A stretch of 44,675 bases of DNA from the NCBI GenBank assembly GCA_035707305.1, contig DASSUE010000187.1:1-44675 (forward strand). The letters run 5' to 3'. Below, one piece after another: positions 1 to 10,838 of the stretch. The stretch's first letter is position 1, and the number at the start of each line of letters is the position of its first letter. The notes under the pieces are model-generated. The model was not told the origin of the DNA. It worked only from the letters and a program-made list of their open reading frames with translations, and made no database searches. Position numbers and translations under genes: made by a program. Source of the DNA: Gemmatimonadales bacterium (GTDB lineage Bacteria; Gemmatimonadota; Gemmatimonadetes; Gemmatimonadales; GWC2-71-9).

Positions 1-357
1 GCCATAGGCGGCCACATCGTACGACATCGGGGTGCGGACCCGCCCTGCCACGTAGAAAGCCGCGGCCGCCGGCAGCCAGCCACCCCGCCCGGCGTCGGTG
101 ACAAACGCGGTCCCCTTTACGGACGGCGCCTTCCTCATCCAATTCACCAGGCATCCTGGTTCGCCGAACTTTCTCGCTTGTCCGCCAACCTCGATGAACT
201 CCGCCGCCAGCCGCGGATCGTCGATTGTCATCCTGCAGTAGGAGCACTCGTCGCGCCCGAATTCGATCTCTACTGGGGCGGGGGCATGTGCTCTCGGCCG
301 ACAAGCCGCCAGCAGTGCGGTGGCGAGCAACGTGCCCAGGAGCTCGCGCCGGGTCAC
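1..357 (-). CDS. nosL: NosL-family copper-chaperone lipoprotein, partial (C-terminus lies beyond window edge)
   Basis: Absent from the ORF track because it runs off the edge. Hand translation of the minus strand from GTG at 357-355 (GTGA overlap with the nosF stop) gives VTRRELLGTLLATALLAAC (lipobox) RPRAHAPAPVEIEFGRDECSYCRMTIDDPRLAAEFIEVGGQARKFGEPGCLVNW... This is the Cys-x2-Cys-x-Met pattern typical of NosL. It sits directly after nosDF. Confidence 0.7.
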   Translation of the reverse strand, partial: MTRRELLGTLLATALLAACRPRAHAPAPVEIEFGRDECSYCRMTIDDPRLAAEFIEVGGQARKFGEPGCLVNWMRKAPSVKGTAFVTDAGRGGWLPAAAAFYVAGRVRTPMSYDVAAYG

Positions 358-1079
358 GCCACTCTCCGGATCGGGGCCAGCCCGGTAAGGCCACGGTACA
401 CGTCCTCGAGGCTCCGCCCGCCGGTGATTCCCAAGAGTTCCGAGAGAGTCCCGATTGCTAACACGCGGCCGGCCGAGAAGACCGCGATGCGATCGGCGAG
501 AGCGGACACTTCGGCGAGATCGTGAGAAGACAGGATGACAGTGGTGGAACGGATGCGCGCCTCGATCAGGAGGTCTCGCACCAGCAGCGCTCCGGTGGGA
601 TCCAGCGCTGCGCTTGGCTCGTCGAACGCGAGAGCTCGCGGGCGTCCCAACAGCGCCGCCGCGAGCCCGAGCCGCTGGCGCATGCCACCAGAAAAGCCAT
701 CAACGACTCGATCGGCCGCTGCCGAGAGTTCGACCCGCTCGAGCAGGGTCTCGACCTCATCACGCGGCGTCCCGCGGAGCTTCGCGCAGAGACGGAGCGC
801 GGCCCGCGCGGTCACGCCGTCGGGGAGCGCCAGGCGCTGGGGTAGGTAGCCGATCAGACCGCGGACTTCCCGACCGGCCGTCGCGACGTCTACCCCGCCA
901 ACCATAACGCGGCCGGCCGTGGGCCGAATGAGCCCGACCAGCGCCTTGAGCGTGGTCGTCTTCCCCGAGCCATTCGGGCCGATCAGCCCCAGCGTCTCGC
1001 CTTCAGCGATGCGCAGATCGATTCCGTCGGCTGCTACGACCGTACCGAACCGTTTGCCGAAGCCGATGTACTGAATCAT
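354..1079 (-). CDS. nosF: ABC transporter ATP-binding protein NosF
   Basis: 241 aa with Walker A GPNGSGKT, ABC signature FSGGMRQR and Walker B LAFDEP. ATGA overlap with the nosD stop (1076-1079). Sits between nosD and nosL. Confidence 0.85.
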   Translation of the reverse strand: MIQYIGFGKRFGTVVAADGIDLRIAEGETLGLIGPNGSGKTTTLKALVGLIRPTAGRVMVGGVDVATAGREVRGLIGYLPQRLALPDGVTARAALRLCAKLRGTPRDEVETLLERVELSAAADRVVDGFSGGMRQRLGLAAALLGRPRALAFDEPSAALDPTGALLVRDLLIEARIRSTTVILSSHDLAEVSALADRIAVFSAGRVLAIGTLSELLGITGGRSLEDVYRGLTGLAPIRRVA

Positions 1080-2347
1080 CTGGTGGCAAGCATAGGCGGC
1101 CGATGCAGCGTCGGCCGGCGAGCCAGCGGATGGGGATCCTCCACGCGCGGCATGTCGAAGACCGGAAACGCCTCGTCCGCCCAGGCCAGAGCACGGGCGG
1201 CGAGCGTGCCTGTGAAAATGTCGAGCACCGGGCGCGTCGCGGCCAGCGTGGCATAAGCGTCGCCCGCCCGGTACGGCCGGTCCCCGATGCCGTCACCGTC
1301 GAGATCGAATACCGACCGGTCGCCCCAGAAGTTGCCGCGGCCATCCGCCGACCAGCGGTTCTCGCTGGTTCCGAGCACCCGTCGCACCGCGATCCGGTTG
1401 TCCGTGATGATGTTGCCGGTGAACGTGTTGTTCTCGGCGCTCGCCAGAAGATCGACGCCCACGCCGTTGTCCGAGATCACGTTGTCCCGGAAGATGTCGC
1501 CGGTCGCGCCGTCAAGGAACAGGCCGGTAAGATTGCCCTCGATCCGGTTTCGCTCCGCCAGCACCTGCTCGGCGGTCTGGAGCAGGATGCCGTAAGCCCG
1601 GTAACCCACGTGCTCGGCGAAGACATTTTCGCGGAACGTGATGCGCTTCGAGAACATGATCGCCGCACCGGCCGCGTTGCGGGTAAACACGTTGCGCTCG
1701 AACGTGTTGTCGTCCGAGTACATGTAGTGAAGGCCGTAGCGGACGTGCGCGACGTCGTTGCCGACGACCGTGTTGCCGCTGGCGAATGAAAAGTAGATCC
1801 CGTCACGGGTGCCGCGGACCGTATTGCCGGCAAGACGGTTGCCCGATGAGTTGAAAAGGTGCACCCCGTTGCCGCGGGCCGATTCGACGAGATCGGCCGC
1901 GCCCGTGATCCGATTGCGCTCCACAGCAACCGCGTGTGCTTCGAGCAGATATACGGCGTGAAGGGGATCCTCGATGACATTATCGGAGATCTGCACGCGG
2001 CGGGCGCGGATCACTTTCACGACCGCGTCGTCGCGCTCCAGCGAGCGTCCACTCGCCCGAAGCGTGAAACCACGTACCGTGACACTGTCGGCGAGAATGG
2101 TGATCACGGTTCCAGTGCGACCGCCGTCAAGGATGGCCCCGGGCTCGCCGATGAGAACGATCGGCTTCTCGAGCTGGAGGCATTCACGATAGCGCCCAGC
2201 GCGAACCCGGACGGTGTCGTGCGGCAGGGAGGCTGCAACCGCCGCCCGGATCGTCGCGTGCTCGGCGCCCAGGCCGACGGTCCGGGTCCGCGGCGGATCC
2301 GCCGTGATGGCGCCCAGCGCCAGGGCGAACAGTGCGATGCCGGCCAT
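1076..2347 (-). CDS. nosD: NosD periplasmic parallel beta-helix copper-maturation protein
   Basis: Repetitive N/G-rich beta-helix repeats (NRITGA.., GNRLAGNTV.., GNTVVGNDV.., NVFTRN.., NRIEGN.., DNVISDNG.., GNIITDN). I place the start at ATG 2347, giving signal-like MAGIALFALALGAITA, because it overlaps the upstream stop as TGATG. The longer ORF to 2467 would overlap the nosB-like gene. Confidence 0.85.
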   Translation of the reverse strand: MAGIALFALALGAITADPPRTRTVGLGAEHATIRAAVAASLPHDTVRVRAGRYRECLQLEKPIVLIGEPGAILDGGRTGTVITILADSVTVRGFTLRASGRSLERDDAVVKVIRARRVQISDNVIEDPLHAVYLLEAHAVAVERNRITGAADLVESARGNGVHLFNSSGNRLAGNTVRGTRDGIYFSFASGNTVVGNDVAHVRYGLHYMYSDDNTFERNVFTRNAAGAAIMFSKRITFRENVFAEHVGYRAYGILLQTAEQVLAERNRIEGNLTGLFLDGATGDIFRDNVISDNGVGVDLLASAENNTFTGNIITDNRIAVRRVLGTSENRWSADGRGNFWGDRSVFDLDGDGIGDRPYRAGDAYATLAATRPVLDIFTGTLAARALAWADEAFPVFDMPRVEDPHPLARRPTLHRPPMLATR

Positions 2348-2958
2348 CAGGCCACCTGCAACGCGGCCGTGACGGGCCGAGGGGCCCGCGGCCGAGGGCG
2401 TCGGAGGTCCGCGACGAGCACCAGCGCCACCAGCCCACCCGCCACCAACGGGAGAATGGTGCCCCAATCGAAGTACGCGTACGTCGCGAACTGAGCGATC
2501 TGATTTTCGCCCAGCATCGGCGGAGTGAATGGCGTAATCTCGATGGCGGCCGTCGGGTCCAGGTCATGCCCGAACTGATACAGCCGCCGCTGCATGGACC
2601 AGAGGCCATACCCTGCCAGCGCGCCCATCAGCGCGAGGGGCACGACTGCGACCCACCGGCGCCGGATGAAGGTGGCGAGGAGGCAGGTCGCCGCCACCAC
2701 ACCGAAGGCAAGCGGAAGCAGCTTGAGCTCCGGGAAAAACGCGTCGGAGATGGGAATCATGCCGATGTAATGGTTCAATGCGTTCAGCTCACCGACGTCG
2801 CCCGTGATCCGGCGGGCGTACACGATCAGCCGGAGCCCGTCCGGGTACTGCGTGCTCACCAGCGTCATGCCCCAGAGTGGCAGGAACACCGCGGCCAGCG
2901 TCAGGGCGGCCGCCGCCAGCAGCAGCTGGCGGCGGTGCCGCGTCACGAGCGCGATCAT
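2347..2958 (-). CDS. NosB-like integral membrane protein (4 predicted TM) directly downstream of clade II nosZ
   Basis: The ATG at 2958 is preceded by GGGAGG and lies 2 nt after the nosZ TAA stop. There are four hydrophobic segments with a large loop after TM1. A membrane protein immediately after atypical nosZ matches the described nosB position. No catalytic motif recognised. Confidence 0.5.
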   Translation of the reverse strand: MIALVTRHRRQLLLAAAALTLAAVFLPLWGMTLVSTQYPDGLRLIVYARRITGDVGELNALNHYIGMIPISDAFFPELKLLPLAFGVVAATCLLATFIRRRWVAVVPLALMGALAGYGLWSMQRRLYQFGHDLDPTAAIEITPFTPPMLGENQIAQFATYAYFDWGTILPLVAGGLVALVLVADLRRPRPRAPRPVTAALQVA

Positions 2959-2959
2959 G

Positions 2960-4966
2960 TTACCTCCCGACAGCAGCCGTTCCAGCCGTGTGAGCATGGG
3001 ACGACTGCGCATGATCGGTGGTGGCCGGCGTGGTTCCCCGGCGGTCGAACGCCATCTCCCCCTGGCCGTTCCGATAGGCTGCCAGCGGGCGCCCGCTCGG
3101 CACGATCTCCAGGTAGCCCTGCATCTCCTGGTGGAGTGCCGAGCAGAAGTTGGTGCAATAGTACGGATACACGCCCGACTTCCGCGCCACGAACTTCAGT
3201 GTCTTGGTCTCGCCCGGATCGATCACGATGTTCTTGTCGAACGCGACCAGACCGAATCCATGGATCTCATCCCGCGCCTGCTCGGCGTTGGTGATGTGCA
3301 GGACCACGGTGTCGCCTTCCTGCACTTGAATGCGACCGGGCTCGAAATAACTCCGGATGGCATACACCTTCCCCTCGACGGTGCGAGTGGCCGCGTTGCG
3401 GATCACCCTGGCGTCGGCCGGAGCCCAAATGGCATTGGGGTCGTGACTCTCCGCTTTCGGATAGAACTCGATCGGCTTGATCACGTCCCGATGCACTAGC
3501 TGCGCGAAGTGCGGCTCCGGCTCGGTGAATGCTTCGTACGTCATCACCATCTTCTGACCGGTGATGTCGATCAGCTGCGAGCTCTCCGGGATCGACGGGC
3601 CCACGTTCAGGTGCCGGCCCTTCGACATCTTGTTCATCGCGACCAGGAAGTCGCCCTTGGGGTGCCGGGTGTCGCCATGCGCGGTCACCAGGTGTCCCAC
3701 GTTGAACTGCACCGGGATCTTATCCAGCACCAGCGACTTCGGGTCGGTGCCGGGCGCGTACGGCGGCAGCTTCCATTTTGCGATCGCGCTCTCGACGTAG
3801 AGCGAGGTGTAGGCATTGCCCCTGCCGTCGAACTGGGTATGGAGCGGACCGAGTCCGACCGGCACTTCCATCAGCACGGCCGACTCGTAGCGAAGCACTG
3901 GAATCCCGTCCTCGCTTCCGGTGAAGTCCTTCTTGTCGATCGCCTCGCGAATCTTCGTGAAGGAGAACACGGTCGAGGTCGGCTGCAGCTTGCCCGAGCA
4001 GACCACGTATTCCCCGCTGGGATCTACGTCCACGCCGTGGGGGCTCTTCCCGCAGGCGATCAGATACATGACACCGGGTACCTTCGCCGGGTCGATCACC
4101 TTCAGGCCGCCAGCCTCGAACGTCCGGCCTGCGGCCGCTGCTGCTTCCGCCGCCTTCCAGTTCACGATGGCGACGTAATCCTTGTCCCGCTGGGTGCTCG
4201 AGGTTTCGAGCTTGCCGGTCGCCCGCTCGGCGTTATACGAGGTCCAGAAGGCCCAGTCCACGGACGGCCCCTTGCCGGTGGCGCCGAGATCCCAGTTGAA
4301 CGGCGGCGTCATGATCTGCCAGCCGATGCTCATCGCTCCGCTCCTCGGGTCCACCTTGATCCCTGTCACGGCGCCCTTGTACTTGGTCGCATAGTCCTCC
4401 AGCGGCTCGTACTTCGAGGCCATCGGCGCGGAGAAGCGAGTCGCGACCAGGGCGTACTCGGTGTTGTCGGTGACCATCGATGAGCCGTGGTTCCCCATCG
4501 TGTTGGGGATCGGCCCGAGGATCTGCTTGGTCTTGAGGTCACGCAGGTCGATGCGGGCGATGCGGTTGTTCGCATTGTCGTTCACGAACAGCCACCGACC
4601 GTCGTAGTCGCCGGCAGTCTTGGAGAGCGCGGGGTGGTGCACGTCGCCCCAGGTATAGCTCCCCATCATCGCCTTGGTTTCCTCGTCGAAGCCGTAGCCG
4701 GTGCCCGGATAGAGACCGAACACCGGGATCGTGGCGATGTGGCGCATCGATGGCACGCCGGCCACGAACACCTGCCCGGAATGCCCTCCGGAGTAGAAGA
4801 GGTAGTAGTCGTCGAAATCGCCCGGCTTCACGTAGGTGGCAAGGGCCGCCTTCTGCACATCACCCGTCGCCATCGGCCGTTGACCGGGGGCTTGGGGCTT
4901 GGTGCCGCTGCAGGCGGCGAGGCTCACGAGAGTGAAAAGCGCGGCGCGATACGCAGCTCTGGGCAT
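2960..4966 (-). CDS. nosZ: Nitrous-oxide reductase NosZ, clade II (Sec/lipobox signal)
   Basis: 668 aa. C-terminal CuA motif YYCTNFCSALHQEMQGYLEIV (C-x3-C-x3-H-x2-M) with an upstream HGFG His. Propeller region contains WGDVHHPA. The N-terminus MPRAAYRAALFTLVSLAAC has no twin-arginine motif. Strong RBS AAGGAGGA just upstream of the ATG at 4966. Confidence 0.95.
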   Translation of the reverse strand: MPRAAYRAALFTLVSLAACSGTKPQAPGQRPMATGDVQKAALATYVKPGDFDDYYLFYSGGHSGQVFVAGVPSMRHIATIPVFGLYPGTGYGFDEETKAMMGSYTWGDVHHPALSKTAGDYDGRWLFVNDNANNRIARIDLRDLKTKQILGPIPNTMGNHGSSMVTDNTEYALVATRFSAPMASKYEPLEDYATKYKGAVTGIKVDPRSGAMSIGWQIMTPPFNWDLGATGKGPSVDWAFWTSYNAERATGKLETSSTQRDKDYVAIVNWKAAEAAAAAGRTFEAGGLKVIDPAKVPGVMYLIACGKSPHGVDVDPSGEYVVCSGKLQPTSTVFSFTKIREAIDKKDFTGSEDGIPVLRYESAVLMEVPVGLGPLHTQFDGRGNAYTSLYVESAIAKWKLPPYAPGTDPKSLVLDKIPVQFNVGHLVTAHGDTRHPKGDFLVAMNKMSKGRHLNVGPSIPESSQLIDITGQKMVMTYEAFTEPEPHFAQLVHRDVIKPIEFYPKAESHDPNAIWAPADARVIRNAATRTVEGKVYAIRSYFEPGRIQVQEGDTVVLHITNAEQARDEIHGFGLVAFDKNIVIDPGETKTLKFVARKSGVYPYYCTNFCSALHQEMQGYLEIVPSGRPLAAYRNGQGEMAFDRRGTTPATTDHAQSSHAHTAGTAAVGR

Positions 4967-4977
4967 AGAATCCTCCT

Positions 4978-5412
4978 TCAGTCGTCGTCTTCAACTTCGA
5001 GTTCGCCCGTCATTCCAAGGGCGGCGTGCGGATCGCACTGGAAGAAGTACTCGCCGGGCGTGAGCGTGACCGGCACATCGAGCGTCTGGCCTGGGAGCTG
5101 GAGCAGCTCGGTCGCGGGAGGAAGTCCCTGTACGCCCGGGTTCTTCTCCGCGGGGAAGTGGAAGTTGTGCACGCCGCTCACCAGCGTGAGGCGAAGCACG
5201 TCCCCCGGTTTGGCTTCCACCTCCTTGGGCTCGAAGTAGTTGCCCTTGTCGTCCGAGATCATCTTGATCGCGATGACCGAGCCAGTCGGCGCGGCCGGCG
5301 CGGCGGCGGCGGCTGGCGCGCTCTCAGTGGTCGCCGGTTCGTTCCTGGACCGCTCGCCACAGGCGGTCAGTCCGGCGGTGAGCACCACGGCGGCGAGAAT
5401 GGCTGGCTTCAC
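4978..5412 (-). CDS. Cupredoxin (type-1 blue copper) lipoprotein, first gene of the nos operon
   Basis: 144 aa. Lipobox LTAC followed by an Ala/Pro linker. Type-1 Cu ligand pattern VHNFHF ... C-D-P-H-A-A-L-G-M (C-x2-H-x4-M). GTG start preceded by GGAAGGAG. The stop lies 11 nt before the nosZ start. Confidence 0.8.
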   Translation of the reverse strand: MKPAILAAVVLTAGLTACGERSRNEPATTESAPAAAAAPAAPTGSVIAIKMISDDKGNYFEPKEVEAKPGDVLRLTLVSGVHNFHFPAEKNPGVQGLPPATELLQLPGQTLDVPVTLTPGEYFFQCDPHAALGMTGELEVEDDD

Positions 5413-5452
5413 GGTCGCTCCTTCCGAGTGTCGAGCTGGGTCGGATGCCCCG

Positions 5453-5497
5453 AAGCTACCGGCGACGGTTCAAGCCGCTGATGAAGGCATTGTGAAG
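5453..5497 (-). promoter_or_regulatory. Candidate response-regulator box plus -10 for the cupredoxin-nosZ operon
   Basis: The minus strand reads CTTCAC-aatgc-CTTCAT-cagcgg-CTTGAA-n10-TAGCTT. This is the same phased-repeat architecture found at about nine other promoters in the window (see findings). An inverted GTGAAGG lies just upstream at 5501-5507. Confidence 0.5.
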
Positions 5498-5534
5498 CTT
5501 CCTTCACGGCTGGCCGGCTCTCGCCCGCGTCGGC

Positions 5535-5580
5535 TTGACAATTGGAATATTGTATATAATCATGAGCATATGATGAATAT
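5535..5580 (+). promoter_or_regulatory. AT-rich promoter/operator region upstream of the Rrf2 regulator gene
   Basis: A ~45-bp AT-rich island in a G+C-rich genome: TTGACA (5535-5540), TATAAT (5555-5560, only a 14-nt spacer), inverted repeat ATCAT-n6-ATGAT (5560-5575) and direct repeat GAATAT (5545, 5575). It ends 20 nt before the rrf2 ATG. Confidence 0.4.
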
Positions 5581-5600
5581 CGGGTGAGAGAGCGTTTCGC

Positions 5601-6020
5601 ATGCTTTCCCAGACCGCGCAGTATGCCCTCCGCACGGTAGTGCTCATTGCCGCTCGACCGCCGGACCAGGCCGTGTCGGTCGAGGAGATCGCGAGCGAGC
5701 TCGGCGTGCCGCGAAACTACCTGTCCAAGACCCTTCATCAGCTCGCGCGGGCCGGGGTGCTGCGCTCTACGCGTGGTCCCGGGGGCGGCTTCCGACTCGC
5801 GGTGCCGGCCGCGCGGCTTCCCTTGGTACGGATCATCGAGCGGTTCGACGACATCGGGACCGGCCGACGCTGCCTCCTGGGTCAGCCGCAGTGCAGCGAC
5901 CGGAAGGCGTGCCGGGCGCATGACCGCTGGAAGGCGGCGGGCGAGGCGATCGTGGCCTTCTTCCGCGACACCACCGTCGCCGACCTGCTCGACGGCCATC
6001 GGAGCGCGGTGGCGGGGTAG
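5601..6020 (+). CDS. Rrf2-family transcriptional regulator (NsrR/IscR-like, Fe-S type)
   Basis: 139 aa. N-terminal wHTH MLSQTAQYALRTVVLIA...VSVEEIASELGVPRNYLSKTLHQLARAGVLRSTRGPGGGFRLA. Three-Cys cluster C-x6-C-x5-C (CLLGQPQCSDRKAC). Confidence 0.85.
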   Translation: MLSQTAQYALRTVVLIAARPPDQAVSVEEIASELGVPRNYLSKTLHQLARAGVLRSTRGPGGGFRLAVPAARLPLVRIIERFDDIGTGRRCLLGQPQCSDRKACRAHDRWKAAGEAIVAFFRDTTVADLLDGHRSAVAG

Positions 6021-6046
6021 GACGGGGCTGAAGGAGATCGACGCAC

Positions 6047-6511
6047 ATGGACTGGTTCGTTCGGGCCTTCATTAAGGCCAGCGTGGCCTGGCTCTCGGCG
6101 GGGGTCACCCTCGGCGTGGCCATGGCCGTGCACCCGCCGTGGGTGATCTATCGTCCGGCCCACATTCACCTCAACGTGCTGGGGTTCGTGGCGATGATGA
6201 TCTTCGGGGTGGGCTATCATGTGCTGCCGCGCATCGCGGGCCACCCCCTGGGTCACCCAAGACTTGCCGCCGCGCACTGGTGGCTGGCGAACATCGGCCT
6301 TGCCCTGTTCGTCGCCGGCCTCGTGGCCCGCGCCCACACGGTCGCGGTCGCGCCGGCGGTGCTGGGGGCGGGGGCGGCGCTGTCGGCGGCCGGCGCCTAT
6401 GCCTTCGCATGGAACATCTGGCGCACGCTCGCCGCCGCGGGCCGGCGCCAGGCTTCGACTGATCGGGGAACGCCGCCCCGCAGGCGCGCGCTGCCGATCG
6501 CGGCGCACTGA
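6047..6511 (+). CDS. 4-TM membrane protein with haem-copper-oxidase helix-X-like AHxH motif (paralog A)
   Basis: 154 aa with four hydrophobic helices. AHIHLNVLGFVAMMIFGVGYHVLPR resembles the COX1/NorB helix X segment (AHFHYVLSMGAVF...WFP). RBS GAAGGAG upstream. Lies between rrf2 and nrfH. Confidence 0.6.
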   Translation: MDWFVRAFIKASVAWLSAGVTLGVAMAVHPPWVIYRPAHIHLNVLGFVAMMIFGVGYHVLPRIAGHPLGHPRLAAAHWWLANIGLALFVAGLVARAHTVAVAPAVLGAGAALSAAGAYAFAWNIWRTLAAAGRRQASTDRGTPPRRRALPIAAH

Positions 6512-6515
6512 CGCG

Positions 6516-6950
6516 GTGGATCGGCTCGTTCAGCGTTACCTGAAGACGGCTATCGGATTTCTCGCCCTTGGCCTCGTGCTCGGCGCACTGATGATCATCC
6601 GACGCGAGCTCCAGGGAGTTTACCCACCGCCGCACTGGATCAGCGCGCATACCCACGCGCTGCTGGTCGGGTTCGTAATGATGCTGATCCAGGGAGTCGC
6701 GCTCTGGATGTTTCCGCGGCCGGACCAGGCTGACCTCCGCTACCGACCTGCGCTCGCGGAATTGGCCTACTGGCTGGTGGCACTATCCACGGTGCTGCGC
6801 CTGGCTGGCGAACTACTTCGCCCCACCGTGGACGCAGTTGCCCTACGGTGGCTCGTGGTCGGCGGGGGGGTGGGGCAAGTCCTCGGAATCCTCGTCTTCT
6901 TCGTAAACATGTGGCCCCGGATCCGCTCCGCGGGAGCCCGCACCCGCTGA
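6516..6950 (+). CDS. 4-TM membrane protein, paralog B of 6047-6511
   Basis: I place the start at GTG 6516, in frame with track ORF 6219-6950 and 5 nt after the paralog A stop. It begins VDRLVQRYLKTAIGFLALGL. AHTHALLVGFVMMLIQGVALWMFPR aligns with the paralog A motif. The part of the track ORF upstream of 6516 overlaps gene A and looks like non-coding Arg/Pro-rich sequence. Confidence 0.55.
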   Translation: MDRLVQRYLKTAIGFLALGLVLGALMIIRRELQGVYPPPHWISAHTHALLVGFVMMLIQGVALWMFPRPDQADLRYRPALAELAYWLVALSTVLRLAGELLRPTVDAVALRWLVVGGGVGQVLGILVFFVNMWPRIRSAGARTR

Positions 6951-6992
6951 CCGGTTCTTGCTCATCACGGCCGTTCAGCCTTAACCTGCGCC

Positions 6993-7535
6993 ATGCCGCA
7001 GGTGCCCACCGGGGCCGGACCGGTTCTGGCAGCGGCGGCCGTCGGACTGGCCGTCGGGCTGGGTGCCTTCACGTTCGGGTATGCGAAGGGTGCCTCCTAT
7101 CTCAGCACCGATCCCGCCGTCTGCGCCAACTGCCACATCATGGGCGAGCACTTCACGGCCTGGCAGCGGTCGAGCCATCGGCAGGCCGCGGCGTGTGCCG
7201 ACTGCCACATGCCGCACGATGTCGTTGGGAAATACGTCGCGAAGGCGTCGAACGGCTTCTGGCATTCGCTCGCCTTCACTACGGGGAACTTCCCCGATCC
7301 ATTGCAGATCAAGCCGCACAACCGCGCCATCACCGAGCACGCCTGTCGCCATTGTCACGGGGACGTCGTGGCGGCGATCGATCCGGCGGACGGCCCGGCG
7401 GACTTCGCAATCCGGTCGGCCTTCGCCGGAGGAGCCGCTGCCGAGCGGCCGCAGATTCACGATGGGCCGATCGACGCAGGCTGGAGCGACTCCTGCATCC
7501 GTTGTCATACCTATGTAGGGCACATGGTGCGGTGA
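6993..7535 (+). CDS. nrfH: NrfH, membrane-anchored tetrahaem NapC/NirT-family quinol dehydrogenase
   Basis: 180 aa with an N-terminal TM helix. Four CxxCH motifs (CANCH, CADCH, CRHCH, CIRCH). Immediately upstream of nrfA. Confidence 0.9.
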   Translation: MPQVPTGAGPVLAAAAVGLAVGLGAFTFGYAKGASYLSTDPAVCANCHIMGEHFTAWQRSSHRQAAACADCHMPHDVVGKYVAKASNGFWHSLAFTTGNFPDPLQIKPHNRAITEHACRHCHGDVVAAIDPADGPADFAIRSAFAGGAAAERPQIHDGPIDAGWSDSCIRCHTYVGHMVR

Positions 7536-7557
7536 CCCGAGTGGACCGGAGAGCATT

Positions 7558-9051
7558 ATGACCGAACCACCGGACTCCTCCAGCGACGTCAGGCCCGCCG
7601 CCCGGCGGACCGCCCGCTGGATCGTGATCGCCGCGGTCTCATCGGCGCTTGCAGCCCTCGCGCTCGGCGCTCTGCTCACGAACATCTTCGAACGCAAGCA
7701 GGAGGCACGAAACCCGTTCTACCGGGTCGTGGAGTTGACCGACAGCACGATCGATCCCGCGATCTGGGGCAAGAATTTCCCGCAGCAGTACGACGACTAC
7801 CGCAAGACAGTGGACATGGTTCACACCCGCTATGGCGGCAGCGAAGGAACGCCCCGCAATCCGACTGCGATCGATCCCCGCCGAGTCGTAGCCCAGAGCC
7901 GGCTGGAGGAGGATCCACGTTTGATGCGGATGTGGGCGGGCTACGCATTTGCCCGGGATTTCCGGGAGGAGCGCGGCCATGCCTACATGCTGGATGACCA
8001 GGTCTTCACGGGGCGGCAGCAGGCTGCACCGCAGCCCGGCGCTTGCCTACACTGCCACGCCTCGATGTACGTCGCCTACAAACGTGCCGGCGCCGGCGAT
8101 CTGATCGCGGGCTTCGAGCGGATCAATCCAATGCCATATGCCGAGGCGAAGGTGCTGGCCGGCAACCATCCGGTTGCATGCATCGACTGCCACGATCCGG
8201 CGACGATGGAGCTGCGGGTGACGCGGCCAGGATTTCTGGAAGGAATCCGGACCCTCAAAGCGTCGCAGGGGGTGCGCGCGTACGACGTGAATCGGGATGC
8301 CTCGAGGCAAGAGATGCGGACGTACGTGTGCGGCCAGTGCCATGTGGAGTACTACTTCAAGGGCAAGGAGAAGCGGCTCACCTATCCGTGGGACCGTGGC
8401 CTCAAGGTGGACAGCATCCTGTCGCACTACGAGGCAAGTGGGCACACGGATTGGATCCACGAGCGCTCCGGCGCCCCCGTTCTCAAGGCCCAGCACCCCG
8501 AGTTCGAGATGTACAGCCAAGGGGTGCATGCCCGCTCGGGAGTGGCGTGCGCCGACTGTCACATGCCCTACGAGCGCCGCGGTGCGCTCAAGATCAGTGA
8601 TCACCACGTGCGCAGCCCATTGCTGAACATCAATCAGGCGTGCCAGACCTGTCACAAGATCTCGGAGGCCGAGCTTCGCGACCGGGTGTATCTGATCCAG
8701 GATCGCACGTTCGAAATGCGGAACATCGCCATCGACGCACTTCTGGATCTGGTCACCGGCATCCAACGCGCGCGTGCGGCGGATAGCACCGCGCCGGTCG
8801 TGGCGAAAGCGCAGCGCTACCAGCGCGCAGCGCAGTTCTTCGCCGACTTCGTGGAAGCAGAGAACTCGATGGGTTTCCACGCCGACCAGGAGGCGGTGCG
8901 CATTCTCGGCAACTCGATCAATTTCTCGCGCCTCGGCCAGGCCGTGCTCAGGGGCGAGCGGGTACCGGACGCGCCCCTCGAGGGCGCCAGCGGTTCGGCG
9001 CACCAGCTGCCGCGGGCCGCGCGGCCGGCTGAACCGATAGATCGGCGCTAG
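7558..9051 (+). CDS. nrfA: Pentahaem cytochrome c nitrite reductase NrfA (ammonia-forming), CxxCH-type active-site haem
   Basis: 497 aa with an N-terminal anchor/signal. Five haem motifs CLHCH, CIDCH, CGQCH (in the conserved CGQCHVEYYF), CADCH and CQTCH. The first motif is CxxCH, not the classical CxxCK. Confidence 0.9.
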   Translation: MTEPPDSSSDVRPAARRTARWIVIAAVSSALAALALGALLTNIFERKQEARNPFYRVVELTDSTIDPAIWGKNFPQQYDDYRKTVDMVHTRYGGSEGTPRNPTAIDPRRVVAQSRLEEDPRLMRMWAGYAFARDFREERGHAYMLDDQVFTGRQQAAPQPGACLHCHASMYVAYKRAGAGDLIAGFERINPMPYAEAKVLAGNHPVACIDCHDPATMELRVTRPGFLEGIRTLKASQGVRAYDVNRDASRQEMRTYVCGQCHVEYYFKGKEKRLTYPWDRGLKVDSILSHYEASGHTDWIHERSGAPVLKAQHPEFEMYSQGVHARSGVACADCHMPYERRGALKISDHHVRSPLLNINQACQTCHKISEAELRDRVYLIQDRTFEMRNIAIDALLDLVTGIQRARAADSTAPVVAKAQRYQRAAQFFADFVEAENSMGFHADQEAVRILGNSINFSRLGQAVLRGERVPDAPLEGASGSAHQLPRAARPAEPIDRR

Positions 9052-9551
9052 CGCCGTCTGGGAATGCTGAGCGTTTGCCAGCGCTCACCGACTAGGTGGC
9101 GGGCGAGCTGCACGATCTGACCGACGTGGTAGGCGTAGTGAGCTAGCTGACGGTCGATCGCCTGCAATACCGAGTGCGGCTCACCGCGGATGGTCACGGT
9201 GCGCAGCAGATCGTCCGGGCCGAGGGGCTCCAGCGCCGAAAAGACCACGCGCCAGCCGTCCTCCCACCAGCGGTGCACGTCGGCTGCCGCGGTATTGCCG
9301 CTGAGCTCGAACTCCGCATCGCGATTCCGGTCCGGCTTCTCACCGTCGGTGGTAAGAAAATCGGTCCAGCGTGAGCGCATGTTCCCAGCCATGTGCTTGA
9401 CAATGACCGCGATGCTGTTCGACTCTGCGTCGAGCGCGTGGAACAACCCCCGCGGCTCCACCTGCGCCATTGCCTTTTCGCCGAGCGCCTTGTACTGGCG
9501 GAACACACGCAGCGCTTCCGCGAGGTATGCGGCACCGATCTCCTCGCTCAT
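9048..9551 (-). CDS. DinB/DUF1572-like four-helix-bundle protein
   Basis: C-terminal LAHYAYHVGQIVQLARHL and internal HMAGNMRSRW fit the DinB-family His pattern. The ATG at 9551 is preceded by GGGAG. The track ORF extends to a GTG at 9599. Its stop overlaps the nrfA stop convergently. Confidence 0.55.
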   Translation of the reverse strand: MSEEIGAAYLAEALRVFRQYKALGEKAMAQVEPRGLFHALDAESNSIAVIVKHMAGNMRSRWTDFLTTDGEKPDRNRDAEFELSGNTAAADVHRWWEDGWRVVFSALEPLGPDDLLRTVTIRGEPHSVLQAIDRQLAHYAYHVGQIVQLARHLVGERWQTLSIPRRR

Positions 9552-9606
9552 GCCGGCTCCCGAAGCTGTTGGGATAGAGCTGGAATCCCTTCCTGCCACT
9601 AGGCCA

Positions 9607-10194
9607 TCACCGCGCTCGGCGTCCCAGCGCCCGGATCTTCTCCAGCCATCGGCCGTGCCGCTCCGGACCGCCGGACTCGACGCTTCCCACGATCGTATCC
9701 CGCACCGGCGCGATACCGCAGAACTTGAGGATGTTGCGCTCGAGACTTCTGAGCGAGTGCGCGCCGAAGTACCAGCGGTAGACCGGCGCCGGCATGCCCA
9801 TGGTGATGATCACGTGGGCGCTTTTTCCCCGCAGTCCCTTTGTTCCGCCCGTTGCCAGTGACCCCGAGAACGCGAACCCGGGGCGGAACAGTTGTTCCAG
9901 GAAGGCTCTCAGCAGCGCCGGCAATCCGCCGAGCCAGAGGGGAAAGATGATCACGAGGTGCTCCGCCCAGCGGACGTCGTCCTGGCAGCGTCGGATGGAC
10001 TCCGGCGGCGGGGTGCTTTCCCACTGCTCGCGGGTCCGGAGCACCGGAAAGTCGAGCGCCGCCACCTGGACTCTTCGGATCTCGTGGCCGGCGTCCCGCG
10101 CACCCTCCGCGTAGGCGTCGGCGAGCGCGTGACAATAATGGGAGGCACCCGGATCCGGATGTCCCTGGATCAGCAGCACGCGTTTGGCAGCCAT
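9607..10194 (-). CDS. NAD(P)H-dependent quinone oxidoreductase, flavodoxin-like fold (Flavodoxin_2 type)
   Basis: 195 aa. MAAKRVLLIQGHPDPGASHYCHALADAY...HLVIIFPLWLGGLPALLRAFLEQL is typical of the NAD(P)H dehydrogenase (quinone)/KefF-MdaB group. Starts 2 nt after the yceI stop. Confidence 0.7.
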   Translation of the reverse strand: MAAKRVLLIQGHPDPGASHYCHALADAYAEGARDAGHEIRRVQVAALDFPVLRTREQWESTPPPESIRRCQDDVRWAEHLVIIFPLWLGGLPALLRAFLEQLFRPGFAFSGSLATGGTKGLRGKSAHVIITMGMPAPVYRWYFGAHSLRSLERNILKFCGIAPVRDTIVGSVESGGPERHGRWLEKIRALGRRAR

Positions 10195-10196
10195 GC

Positions 10197-10838
10197 TCAG
10201 GGCACGCGAATCGCTTCGATCGCGACAGTGATCTCGACTTCGTTGCCGATACCAGGCACGCCGTTCACCAGCTCCTTGTAGGTAAGCCCGAAGTCGCGGC
10301 GATCGATCAACGTGCTTGCGTCGAACGCGATCCGCTGCTGGCCGACGTAGTCCTTCGCTGTGCCGCGGTACTGGCCGACGAGCACCACCTGGCGCGCGTG
10401 GCCCTTGAGGGTCAGAATCCCCCCGATCTCCACGGTGCTATCGGTCGCTACGATGCCGGTGCTCTCGAACGTCATGCGCGGGAAGCTGTCGGAGGCGAAA
10501 AACCGCGCGCTCCGGAGATCGGCGTCCCGGTGTATGTTCCCGGTGTTCACGCTGGCGGTCTGCACTCCCACGTTCACTGTTCCGTGCGTCCAGTCCCCGT
10601 CCCGGGTGACGATGACCCCGTACCAGTCGTCGAATGTGCCGCGCACCCGGCCCACGAGGTGCCTGACCCGGAAGTCTACCTGAGAGTGTACCGGGTCCAC
10701 GACCCACCGCGTCCCGGTCGATGGGATCTGGCTCGACGCCCGCACTGCCGCCGGGTCGGCCTGCGCGGCGGCGCCTGATGCGAGGGCAGTGAACAGCACG
10801 AGGGCGAGGAGTGCGTTAACGGCGACACGAGGTTTCAT
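10197..10838 (-). CDS. YceI-family periplasmic (polyisoprenoid-binding) protein
   Basis: 213 aa with a signal peptide. VDPVHSQVDFRVRHLVGRVRGTFDDW is the YceI-family hallmark. RBS GGAAGG upstream. Confidence 0.8.
   Translation of the reverse strand: MKPRVAVNALLALVLFTALASGAAAQADPAAVRASSQIPSTGTRWVVDPVHSQVDFRVRHLVGRVRGTFDDWYGVIVTRDGDWTHGTVNVGVQTASVNTGNIHRDADLRSARFFASDSFPRMTFESTGIVATDSTVEIGGILTLKGHARQVVLVGQYRGTAKDYVGQQRIAFDASTLIDRRDFGLTYKELVNGVPGIGNEVEITVAIEAIRVP

Follow-up and report, generated by a model that had tools for sequence, protein, structure and literature searches.

Subunit I of the haem-copper oxidases (HCO) consists of three four-helix arcs in a pseudo-threefold arrangement, as has been known since the first oxidase structures. 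A second membrane protein with a bearing on what follows, NnrS, is described in PMC3345576 as a haem-copper protein (citing Bartnikas 2002) and as a contributor to nitric oxide (NO) resistance in Vibrio cholerae; its gene belongs to the core of the NsrR, NorR, DNR and NnrR regulons and sometimes shares an operon with nsrR (PMC1274295). The present analysis concerns a stretch of 44,675 nucleotides (nt), referred to throughout as the window, from a Gemmatimonadales bacterium (contig DASSUE010000187.1, assembly GCA_035707305.1), and in particular two adjacent genes on its plus strand, gene A (6047-6511) and gene B (6516-6950), encoding membrane proteins of 154 and 144 amino acids (aa). These proteins represent a known superfamily in a new architecture and a new genomic setting, in that each is a free-standing module corresponding to a single repeat out of the three that make up HCO subunit I and NnrS. 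Homology of A and B to the haem-binding core of HCO subunit I is close to certain. The more extended reading, that the pair belongs to the NO/denitrification regulon and is an NnrS-like membrane protein in split form, with haem or possibly haem-metal, has about an even chance of being correct along its whole chain; within it an N-oxide-related role is likely, and haem binding is favoured with somewhat less confidence.

The A and B proteins share 34% identity (E 5e-9) and are, judged by their sequences, paralogs, of which B is the more divergent. Both exceed the gathering cutoff of the Pfam COX1 family (34.8 bits; A 43.4 bits, B 37.2 bits), a profile matched also by all 114 A/B homologs, and a sequence search of the PDB returns only subunit I chains as significant matches for either protein. 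The cbb3-oxidase subunit CcoN is best among these (E 4.5e-9 to 6.9e-9 for A, 2e-3 to 7e-3 for B), followed by weak matches to ba3 and COX1 chains. The best-aligned region of CcoN overall is helices IX-XII, and the best-scoring stretch for A is 332-400 in helices X-XI, where A38-H39-I40-H41 of A is aligned on G344-H345-V346-H347 in helix X of P. stutzeri CcoN (3mk7). The invariant G46 and G54 of A align with glycines of the same CcoN helix, and the YH..P[RK] helix end of A and the AHWWLANIG motif in its next helix have counterparts in CcoN as well. The two histidines of the A motif (AHIH, residues 38-41, positions 6158-6169, plus strand; H39 at 6161-6163 and H41 at 6167-6169) are invariant across 114 aligned A- and B-type homologs, and those of the B motif (AHTH, residues 44-47, positions 6645-6656, plus strand; H45 at 6648-6650 and H47 at 6654-6656) are 100% conserved in 120 B-type sequences; this conservation and the CcoN alignment mark them as presumed haem or metal ligands. 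The motif segments quoted in the original prediction for this locus, AHIHLNVLGFVAMMIFGVGYHVLPR and AHTHALLVGFVMMLIQGVALWMFPR, are present as residues 38-62 of A and 44-68 of B.

An AlphaFold2 model of A computed from 114 homologs (predicted local distance difference test, pLDDT, 89.6) contains four helices, at residues 3-28, 30-64, 71-95 and 102-141. In a Foldseek search of the PDB with this model, CcoN ranks first (E 2.8e-4, template-modelling score normalised to the query, TMq, 0.74, root mean square deviation 2.9 Å), and TMq values are ~0.70-0.73 for most aa3/caa3 oxidases, 0.57-0.73 for bo3 oxidases and 0.55-0.64 for NorB/qNOR. The original prediction, made from the sequence alone, had pictured a paralogous four-helix pair of this size carrying AHxH on helix 2 and resembling HCO helix X, with histidines that should be conserved among homologs, and all of this is borne out. 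The Arg-rich loop between helices 2 and 3 and the Arg-rich C-terminal tail suggest that both termini are cytoplasmic, and the presumed ligand sites would lie approximately three helical turns below the periplasmic face.

The features that complete an oxidase are missing. Both proteins stay far below the cutoff of the ccoN equivalog model TIGR00780 (583.15 bits; A 34.3, B 23.4), and neither has the twelve-helix single-chain core, A being 154 aa long with four helices and B 144 aa. Neither sequence contains an HH pair, and the CuB/FeB ligands (His of helix VI, HH of helix VII) are lacking, as are the further repeats on which they would sit. Genes for HCO partners (CcoO/CcoP, CoxB, NorC) were found neither among the scanned open reading frames (ORFs) of 354-10838 nor in related loci. 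We take CcoN H345 to be the ligand of haem b3, and H60 and H347 to be those of haem b, as in the cbb3 structure.

A also aligns, more weakly, with CcoN 8-106, where H39 falls on H60 in helix II, and with CcoN 202-243 from helix VI onward. Since these stretches correspond to the first two arcs of subunit I in turn, the A module matches the other two arcs in addition to the third. An equivalence of A H41 with the CuB ligand H207 was considered and dropped, as the local alignment starts one residue after H207 and its ungapped extension places H207 on L42.

The repeat relationship is borne out by natural proteins in which the module occurs more than once. When a profile combining 10 A-type with 9 B-type sequences was searched against 1.84 billion representative proteins, it retrieved 3281 proteins at E≤1e-3, 1146 at E≤1e-10 and 81 at E≤1e-30. 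Among the best 150 matches the module occurs once in 100 (~100-200 aa), of which 89 carry HxH, twice in five, four of these being 273-291 aa long, and three times in 45 (397-767 aa). The three-repeat proteins are of two kinds. In the first (P0241, P0261, P0286, P0314, P0350, P0380) HxH is present in every repeat and COX1 is the only Pfam match. In the second (P0256, P0257, P0246, P0258, P0272 and others) HxH is usually found in repeat 1 with single histidines in repeats 2 and 3, and the five proteins scanned with Pfam score 43-54 bits on NnrS against a cutoff of 28 (P0256 and P0257, 50-54). Because proteins that pass the NnrS cutoff match the A/B profile three times, NnrS is, like COX1, a triplicated version of the A/B module. 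Sequence search of the PDB with the NnrS-like P0257 returned no matching solved structure.

One protein of the first kind is P0241 (413 aa). Each of its repeats scores 85-99 bits against the A-family hidden Markov model (HMM), so that the protein is effectively a covalent A-A-A, and in an alignment of 24 homologs at 51-65% identity five of the six motif histidines (H40, H42, H185, H187, H324) are invariant and the sixth, H322, is kept at ≥90%. Its AlphaFold2 model (pLDDT 91.7, predicted template-modelling score 0.90) superimposes on whole CcoN with TMq 0.79 and a score normalised to the target (TMt) of 0.70, and on NorB (4xyd) with 0.77 and 0.72; all significant Foldseek matches are HCO subunit I chains, and the template-modelling scores of non-HCO proteins are ≤0.21. 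The predicted fold of P0241 is thus that of an entire oxidase core with 12 helices, but without a CuB site, and the protein is not a canonical oxidase or NO reductase (NOR) because it has no HH pair at the helix VII position.

The two-repeat proteins are stand-alone eight-helix genes of 273-291 aa (P0248, P0294, P0301, P0330, P0416-P0423); in P0248, P0294 and P0301 one repeat carries HxH and the other a single histidine. An attempt to assign A and B to specific repeats of the longer proteins failed, the A-family HMM being best for all repeats. The polarity of the series could run in either direction: since A is most similar specifically to the third repeat of the C-family oxidases, the single-repeat family could be a derived CcoN fragment that was later re-triplicated, as opposed to an ancestral relic.

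Some relatives are fused to domains that also occur beside A. ScdA_N/DUF1858 fusions are found with both one-repeat and NnrS-like three-repeat proteins (P0246, P0258, P0272, P0424, P0425): P0424 is one repeat with two DUF1858 domains, and P0246, P0258 and P0272 are NnrS-like with DUF1858/ScdA_N at one or both ends. On the topology suggested by the Arg-rich helix 2-3 loop and C-terminal tail, these fused ends would be cytoplasmic.

The relation to NnrS extends to the single-repeat proteins. NnrS is matched at E≤0.01 by 46 of the 114 A/B homologs and DUF2871 by seven. Five B-type homologs align with NnrS profile positions 253-366 of 371, i.e., its last third only, at 26-29 bits around the cutoff of 28, and gene B itself is placed near this last third. 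The DUF2871 cutoff of 27.4 bits is missed clearly by A (11.4 bits) and narrowly by the best B-type homolog, which attains 26.8 bits over positions 2-119 of 134.

The genomic settings of related genes connect the module to N-oxides. A scan of 185,579 species genomes gave 240 confirmed relatives, and context was counted in the best 80 loci, in which ORFs within 4 kb of A were clustered and recurring clusters were checked against Pfam and NCBIfam. These loci derive almost entirely from Gemmatimonadota metagenome-assembled genomes (MAGs); the exceptions are one with the label Bacillota and two whose label is only 'bacterium'. NirK is near A in 32 of 80 loci (TIGR02376, 376 bits against a cutoff of 296), nos genes or a cupredoxin in 23, and one or other of these in 47; in 33, A is immediately preceded by ScdA_N and/or a small cupin, and an Rrf2 or Crp/Fnr regulator is near in 20. 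At least one of NirK, nos/cupredoxin, ScdA_N/cupin and Rrf2/Crp, with B excluded from the count, is present in 66 of 80 loci, consistent with the linkage of homologs to N-oxide genes on which the original prediction depended. The recurring gene strings are nirK-FGE/NirV-ScdA_N-cupin-A(-B), nosZ-nosL-nosD-nosF-nosY-cupredoxin-A, and Rrf2-A(-B), and a cupredoxin adjoins A in many loci. An ScdA_N (75 aa)-Cupin_2 (128 aa)-A operon is seen in the called genes of L081-L086 (at 7391-8465 in L081), and because fusion and neighbourhood give the same link, the partnership with ScdA_N is reinforced.

Rrf2 lies immediately upstream of A or B in L003, L038, L062, L066, L080, L087 and L092-L095; in L087 it is B without A that directly follows Rrf2, opposite a nos cluster. 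In five loci (L003, L092, L093, L094, L095) A is 74-76% identical to A of the window. Two of these, L094 and L095, reproduce the full window arrangement including nrfHA (L094, 6919-8949); L092 has Rrf2-A-B followed by a TonB_C gene (2816-3565) in the same DinB/flavodoxin/YceI flank; and L093 and L003 have Rrf2-A-B without nrfHA, so that nrfHA is absent from three of the five close syntenic relatives (L003, L092, L093). What these loci have in common is an Rrf2-A-B unit that faces the nos cluster and is kept with or without nrfHA. As nrfHA is present in only part of the syntenic loci, it is best regarded as a variable insertion and not as part of the conserved unit. The single operon with nrfHA proposed originally therefore describes the window correctly and does not generalize, nrfHA being near A in 2 of 80 loci and in two of the five close syntenic relatives.

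Several further observations concern these neighbourhoods. In the close relatives the interval between B and DinB is a variable insertion point, occupied by nrfHA, by the TonB_C gene or by nothing, and the DinB/flavodoxin/YceI trio is syntenic in L092, L094 and L095. Beside A in six loci (L009, L011, L015, L018, L028, L079), and in four of them between A and B, stands a CopD/DUF4149 membrane protein of 165 aa (41.8 bits on Pfam CopD; L018, 6490-6987), whose family may be either a partner of A/B or another remote relative. A nitronate monooxygenase-like (NMO) gene of ~473-490 aa is found beside A in 14 loci (L005, L014, L025, L042, L056, L062, L080 and others), and tandem universal-stress-protein genes in 17.

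In the window the genes for Rrf2 (5601-6020), A, B, NrfH (6993-7535) and NrfA (7558-9051) are co-oriented on the plus strand with short gaps (Rrf2-A 26 nt, A-B 4 nt, B-nrfH 42 nt, nrfH-nrfA 22 nt), and a scan of 4900-9700 finds no terminator-like sites between them. Gene A, from ORF reading, begins at an ATG preceded by the Shine-Dalgarno sequence GAAGGAGA. Gene B begins at a GTG 4 nt past the stop codon of A, a start that is accepted because homologs of the same length open with MDRLVQRYLKT (P0121: 144 aa, 93% identity, 100% coverage). No third A/B paralog was found by tblastn of A and B against the window. The window has a GC content of 67.5%, and gene calling based on GC at third codon positions was too weak for all genes, so only selected ORFs were annotated.

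The regulator matches Pfam Rrf2 (107.7 bits) and TIGR00738 (114.8 bits, cutoff 73.3), and its translation contains the cluster-binding pattern C91-x6-C98-x5-C104-x2-H107 typical of Fe-S members. An AT-rich promoter-like site with an overlapping conserved element, picked out by promoter and palindrome scans and by comparison with L003, lies upstream of it at 5535-5580 (plus strand) and is a candidate Rrf2 operator. It comprises TTGACA-17-AATCAT (5535-5563), the sole sigma-70-like match in 4900-9700, and a palindrome at 5554-5571 within the AT-rich island. A ~22-nt element, TCATGAG[C/T]ATATGATGAAT, overlaps the -10 element and is common to the window and to the Rrf2 ortholog of L003 (about 4740-4770); the spacer around it differs between the two loci and the element is kept, which makes it a candidate autoregulatory Rrf2 operator. 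In at least five other Gemmatimonadota loci a different palindrome, TTCTCAT-N6-ATGAGAA, lies ~30-37 nt upstream of the Rrf2 start, and in four further loci it heads the nirK/A gene string (L008:2580, L029:551, L038:5443, L044:4939, L047:327, L057:1408, L062:5463, L068:4737, L076:2703). There are 9 good matches against 1.2 expected in shuffled sequence, and this palindrome is likewise a candidate autoregulatory operator; it is absent from the window itself, which has the other conserved element.

The remaining neighbours are as follows. NrfH is a tetrahaem quinol dehydrogenase (TIGR03153, 147.8 bits against a cutoff of 134.2) and, in spite of its place in the A/B operon here, a variable add-on. 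NrfA is a putative pentahaem nitrite reductase (Pfam cytochrome c552, 422.7 bits; NCBIfam NrfA equivalog, 279.9 bits against a cutoff of 595) with five CxxCH haem motifs (CLHCH, CIDCH, CGQCH, CADCH, CQTCH) and no CxxCK active-site motif in its translation. Convergent with nrfA on the minus strand (9048-10838) are genes for a DUF1572/DinB protein, a flavodoxin-like NAD(P)H quinone reductase and a YceI protein. Divergent from Rrf2, also on the minus strand, is a nos cluster assigned by Pfam and NCBIfam (354-4966 overall) and headed by a plastocyanin/pseudoazurin-like cupredoxin (4978-5412; Pfam Copper-bind, 40 bits). It contains a Sec-dependent clade II nosZ (2960-4966; TIGR04246, 808.7 bits against a cutoff of 625), an unnamed membrane protein of 221 aa (2347-3012), nosD (1076-2467; Pfam NosD) and nosF (354-1079; Pfam ABC_tran). 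The 221-aa protein has no match in Pfam or NCBIfam, is conserved in the same-position gene of another Gemmatimonadota nos cluster, that of L087 (2997-3677, minus strand; 36% identity, E 6e-20), and is likely to be the accessory membrane protein of clade II nos clusters, in the NosB position. The idea that A or B might be the NosB of clade II nos clusters was discarded, this separate conserved protein filling that position.

The pieces may be assembled as follows. The modules would associate in the membrane as a homo- or hetero-oligomer, and because three A-like modules pack as in subunit I in the P0241 model, free modules most plausibly form a ring of three that rebuilds a 12-helix HCO-like core; as a model of the assembly, this ring has roughly even odds. 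In CcoN, where H345 is by alignment the position-39-type His of repeat 3, on the haem b3 side, haem b is held by H60, a position-39-type residue of repeat 1, and H347, a position-41-type residue of repeat 3, and a ring would by the same geometry offer up to three inter-subunit bis-His sites. In each, the position-39 His of one module and the position-41 His of its neighbour would sandwich a b-type haem, and a metal is possible at one site. Since Rrf2-A-B looks like a split nsrR-nnrS unit, an NnrS-like, NO-responsive haem membrane complex is favoured. The Fe-S Rrf2 would de-repress the Rrf2-A-B operon when NO or nitrite appears; the complex would work as NnrS does, binding or turning over NO at the membrane beside enzymes that make NO or are poisoned by it (NirK, NrfA, NosZ); and the cytoplasmic ScdA_N/DUF1858 and cupin partners, where present, would act on the inner face.

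A number of observations weigh against this NnrS-like reading or parts of it. Neither A nor B of the window matches Pfam NnrS at E≤1, and NnrS is itself a protein whose molecular function has no known mechanism. The HxH motifs of A and B could bind Cu, Fe or Zn instead of haem. The trimer is extrapolated from the predicted fold of a fused relative; every repeat of every multi-repeat protein scores higher on the A-family than on the B-family HMM, which bears on the place of B in the assembly; and the two-repeat proteins (P0248, P0294, P0416) fit no simple ring of three unless paired with a third module. No N-oxide genes are seen near the distant relatives P0398 (three repeats), P0416 (two repeats) and P0424, and beside the last, the DUF1858 fusion, a Crp/Fnr gene adjoins and nothing else of note. 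Finally, the regulator scores 56.6 bits on the NsrR equivalog NF008240 (cutoff 182), below its 70.4 bits on the IscR equivalog (cutoff 207.55), and reaches neither cutoff; of the Fe-S, NO-sensing regulator that had been predicted, the cluster-type Rrf2 stands and the NsrR identity is not supported.

Of the alternatives, one that is unlikely but deserves weight is that A and B form an electron-entry module, a b-haem oligomer that oxidises quinol or relays electrons to the cupredoxin or cytochrome c feeding clade II NosZ and NirK, in the role of NosGH/NosR and as NrfH does for NrfA. The position of A directly after the cupredoxin that ends the nosZ-nosL-nosD-nosF-nosY-cupredoxin-A strings (L012, L016, L024, L026, L036, L041) would suit such a module, as would the nos cluster, with a cupredoxin or cytochrome c at its head, that Rrf2-A-B faces both in the window and in L092-L095, the presumed haem sites near the periplasmic face, and the fact that none of NosR, NosG and NosH was seen in the nos clusters read. 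However, the module has no known quinol-site signature, haems at a single periplasmic-side depth would be an unusual design for a quinol dehydrogenase, and many A genes occur in nirK or stand-alone contexts without a cupredoxin. The partnerships with ScdA_N/DUF1858 and cupin, the fusions and the relationship to NnrS would also be left unexplained.

The original prediction envisaged a heterodimeric module, and a strict version of it, one A and one B giving eight helices and four histidines that hold two bis-His haems, must be judged doubtful, on a par with electron entry. It draws on the translational coupling of A and B here, across the 4-nt gap, and on similar A-B gaps of 0-30 nt in L003, L034, L037, L058 and L061, as well as on the two-repeat fusions of 273-291 aa, of which P0248 is collinear with COX1 profile positions 168-432, i.e., two adjacent repeats. 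Yet only 33 of 80 loci have a B gene less than 4 kb from A, 47 of 80 having A with no nearby B; B follows Rrf2 alone in L087, and A stands alone after ScdA_N-cupin. Both halves of the two-repeat fusions are A-like and not A plus B, two adjacent repeats in the HCO architecture leave half-sites open, and three-repeat forms are approximately nine times commoner than two-repeat forms among the best 150 matches (45 vs 5). Together with the predicted fold of P0241, these observations speak against a dedicated A/B heterodimer as the best model, and the ring of three is preferred.

A bolder proposal, quite improbable in our judgement, is that A and B constitute a minimal haem(-metal) enzyme that reduces or disposes of NO and fills the place of the NO reductase reported to be missing from nirK/nosZ Gemmatimonadota, the one-, two- and three-repeat forms being surviving stages of the triplication behind the HCO, NOR and NnrS core. 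Of 245 marine MAGs, 62 encode NirK/S, 125 NosZ and 8 NrfAH, and the need for metabolic handoffs in two sampling areas has been attributed to an absence of nitric oxide reductase (PMC11316326).

Copper handling, in which HxH modules without haem would bind or move Cu for the maturation of NirK, NosZ and the cupredoxin, is slightly less probable again. Most neighbours of A are Cu proteins, the CopD/DUF4149 protein accompanies A as described above, five homologs give weak CopD matches (best E 5e-4), and NnrS is reported, in the source cited above, to contain Cu. On the other side, the histidines align with CcoN haem ligands and the glycine pattern of the haem-packing helix is kept, NosDFY and NosL of the nos cluster already serve Cu delivery, and the regulator and ScdA_N/DUF1858 partners indicate NO and not Cu.

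That A is an ordinary cbb3 oxidase subunit I or the decaying fragment of one, as the source-database name 'cbb3-type cytochrome c oxidase subunit I' and the best sequence match to CcoN helices IX-XII would suggest, is almost certainly wrong, given four helices in place of 12, a TIGR00780 score of 34.3 against 583, the absence of CuB ligands and of ccoO/ccoP nearby, and a size of ~150 aa kept with intact starts and stops across >900 (A) and >800 (B) clusters.

The homolog clusters number 946 for A, those listed being ~150 aa, and 830 for B, and database entries by the thousand are mostly unnamed or called 'cbb3-type cytochrome c oxidase subunit I' or 'haem/copper-type oxidase subunit 1'. Since the proteins fall below the equivalog cutoff, lack the twelve-helix core and lack the CuB ligands, the name 'cbb3 subunit I' is wrong, and counting these thousands of misnamed ~150-aa entries as oxidases inflates the aerobic capacity deduced in MAG surveys. 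A search of the full-text literature retrieved no paper on the single-repeat A/B family, in agreement with the earlier statement that no protein of this architecture had been characterised; to that statement the present analysis adds the three-repeat nature of the superfamily, the one-, two- and three-repeat relatives, the relation to NnrS and DUF2871, and the ScdA_N/DUF1858 partners. Relatives with one, two and three repeats and intact haem-ligand histidines make the triplication origin of the oxidase core experimentally approachable and allow one to ask how the asymmetric haem-Cu site arose from symmetric bis-His sites. The tie between NnrS and the same repeat provides a 150-aa model system for a widespread NO-stress protein without known mechanism, and the genes sit in nirK/nosZ clusters of Gemmatimonadota, abundant reducers of nitrous oxide that are reported to be without a recognisable NO reductase.

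In comparison with known systems, NorB/qNOR shares its fold family and denitrification setting with A and B, but has an FeB site (three His and a Glu) and a NorC partner where A and B have neither, and NO reduction by A/B is speculation. DUF2871 (PF11070, ~134 positions), whose literature concerns Staphylococcus genomes, is similar to A and B in size, and one B-type homolog aligns with nearly the full profile, below cutoff. The P0241 family (~413 aa), named cbb3 subunit I and found in MAGs of Proteobacteria/Deltaproteobacteria, is in effect a covalent A3 from another phylum, and the one context read is without N-oxide genes. CcoN (the C-family cbb3 subunit I; PDB 3mk7, 8smr, 9g6b), whose helices IX-XII are the best match of A in both sequence and fold, is like A in its HxH, its G-x7-G spacing, the YH..P[KR] helix end, the AHxWLAxIG of the next helix and the N-in topology; it differs in having twelve helices, CuB ligands and CcoO/CcoP partners, where A and B have four helices and none of these, and in residing in oxidase operons, whereas the A/B genes are in NO/denitrification operons. 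NnrS (PF05940) is of the same superfamily, with 12 helices in ~400 aa against single repeats of 154 and 144 aa, and its relatives described here carry HxH only in repeat 1 and single histidines in repeats 2 and 3, whereas A and B each carry HxH. It resembles A and B in that the genes of both lie beside or behind NO-type regulators, and NnrS-like relatives are fused to ScdA_N/DUF1858, the same domains that are neighbours of A.

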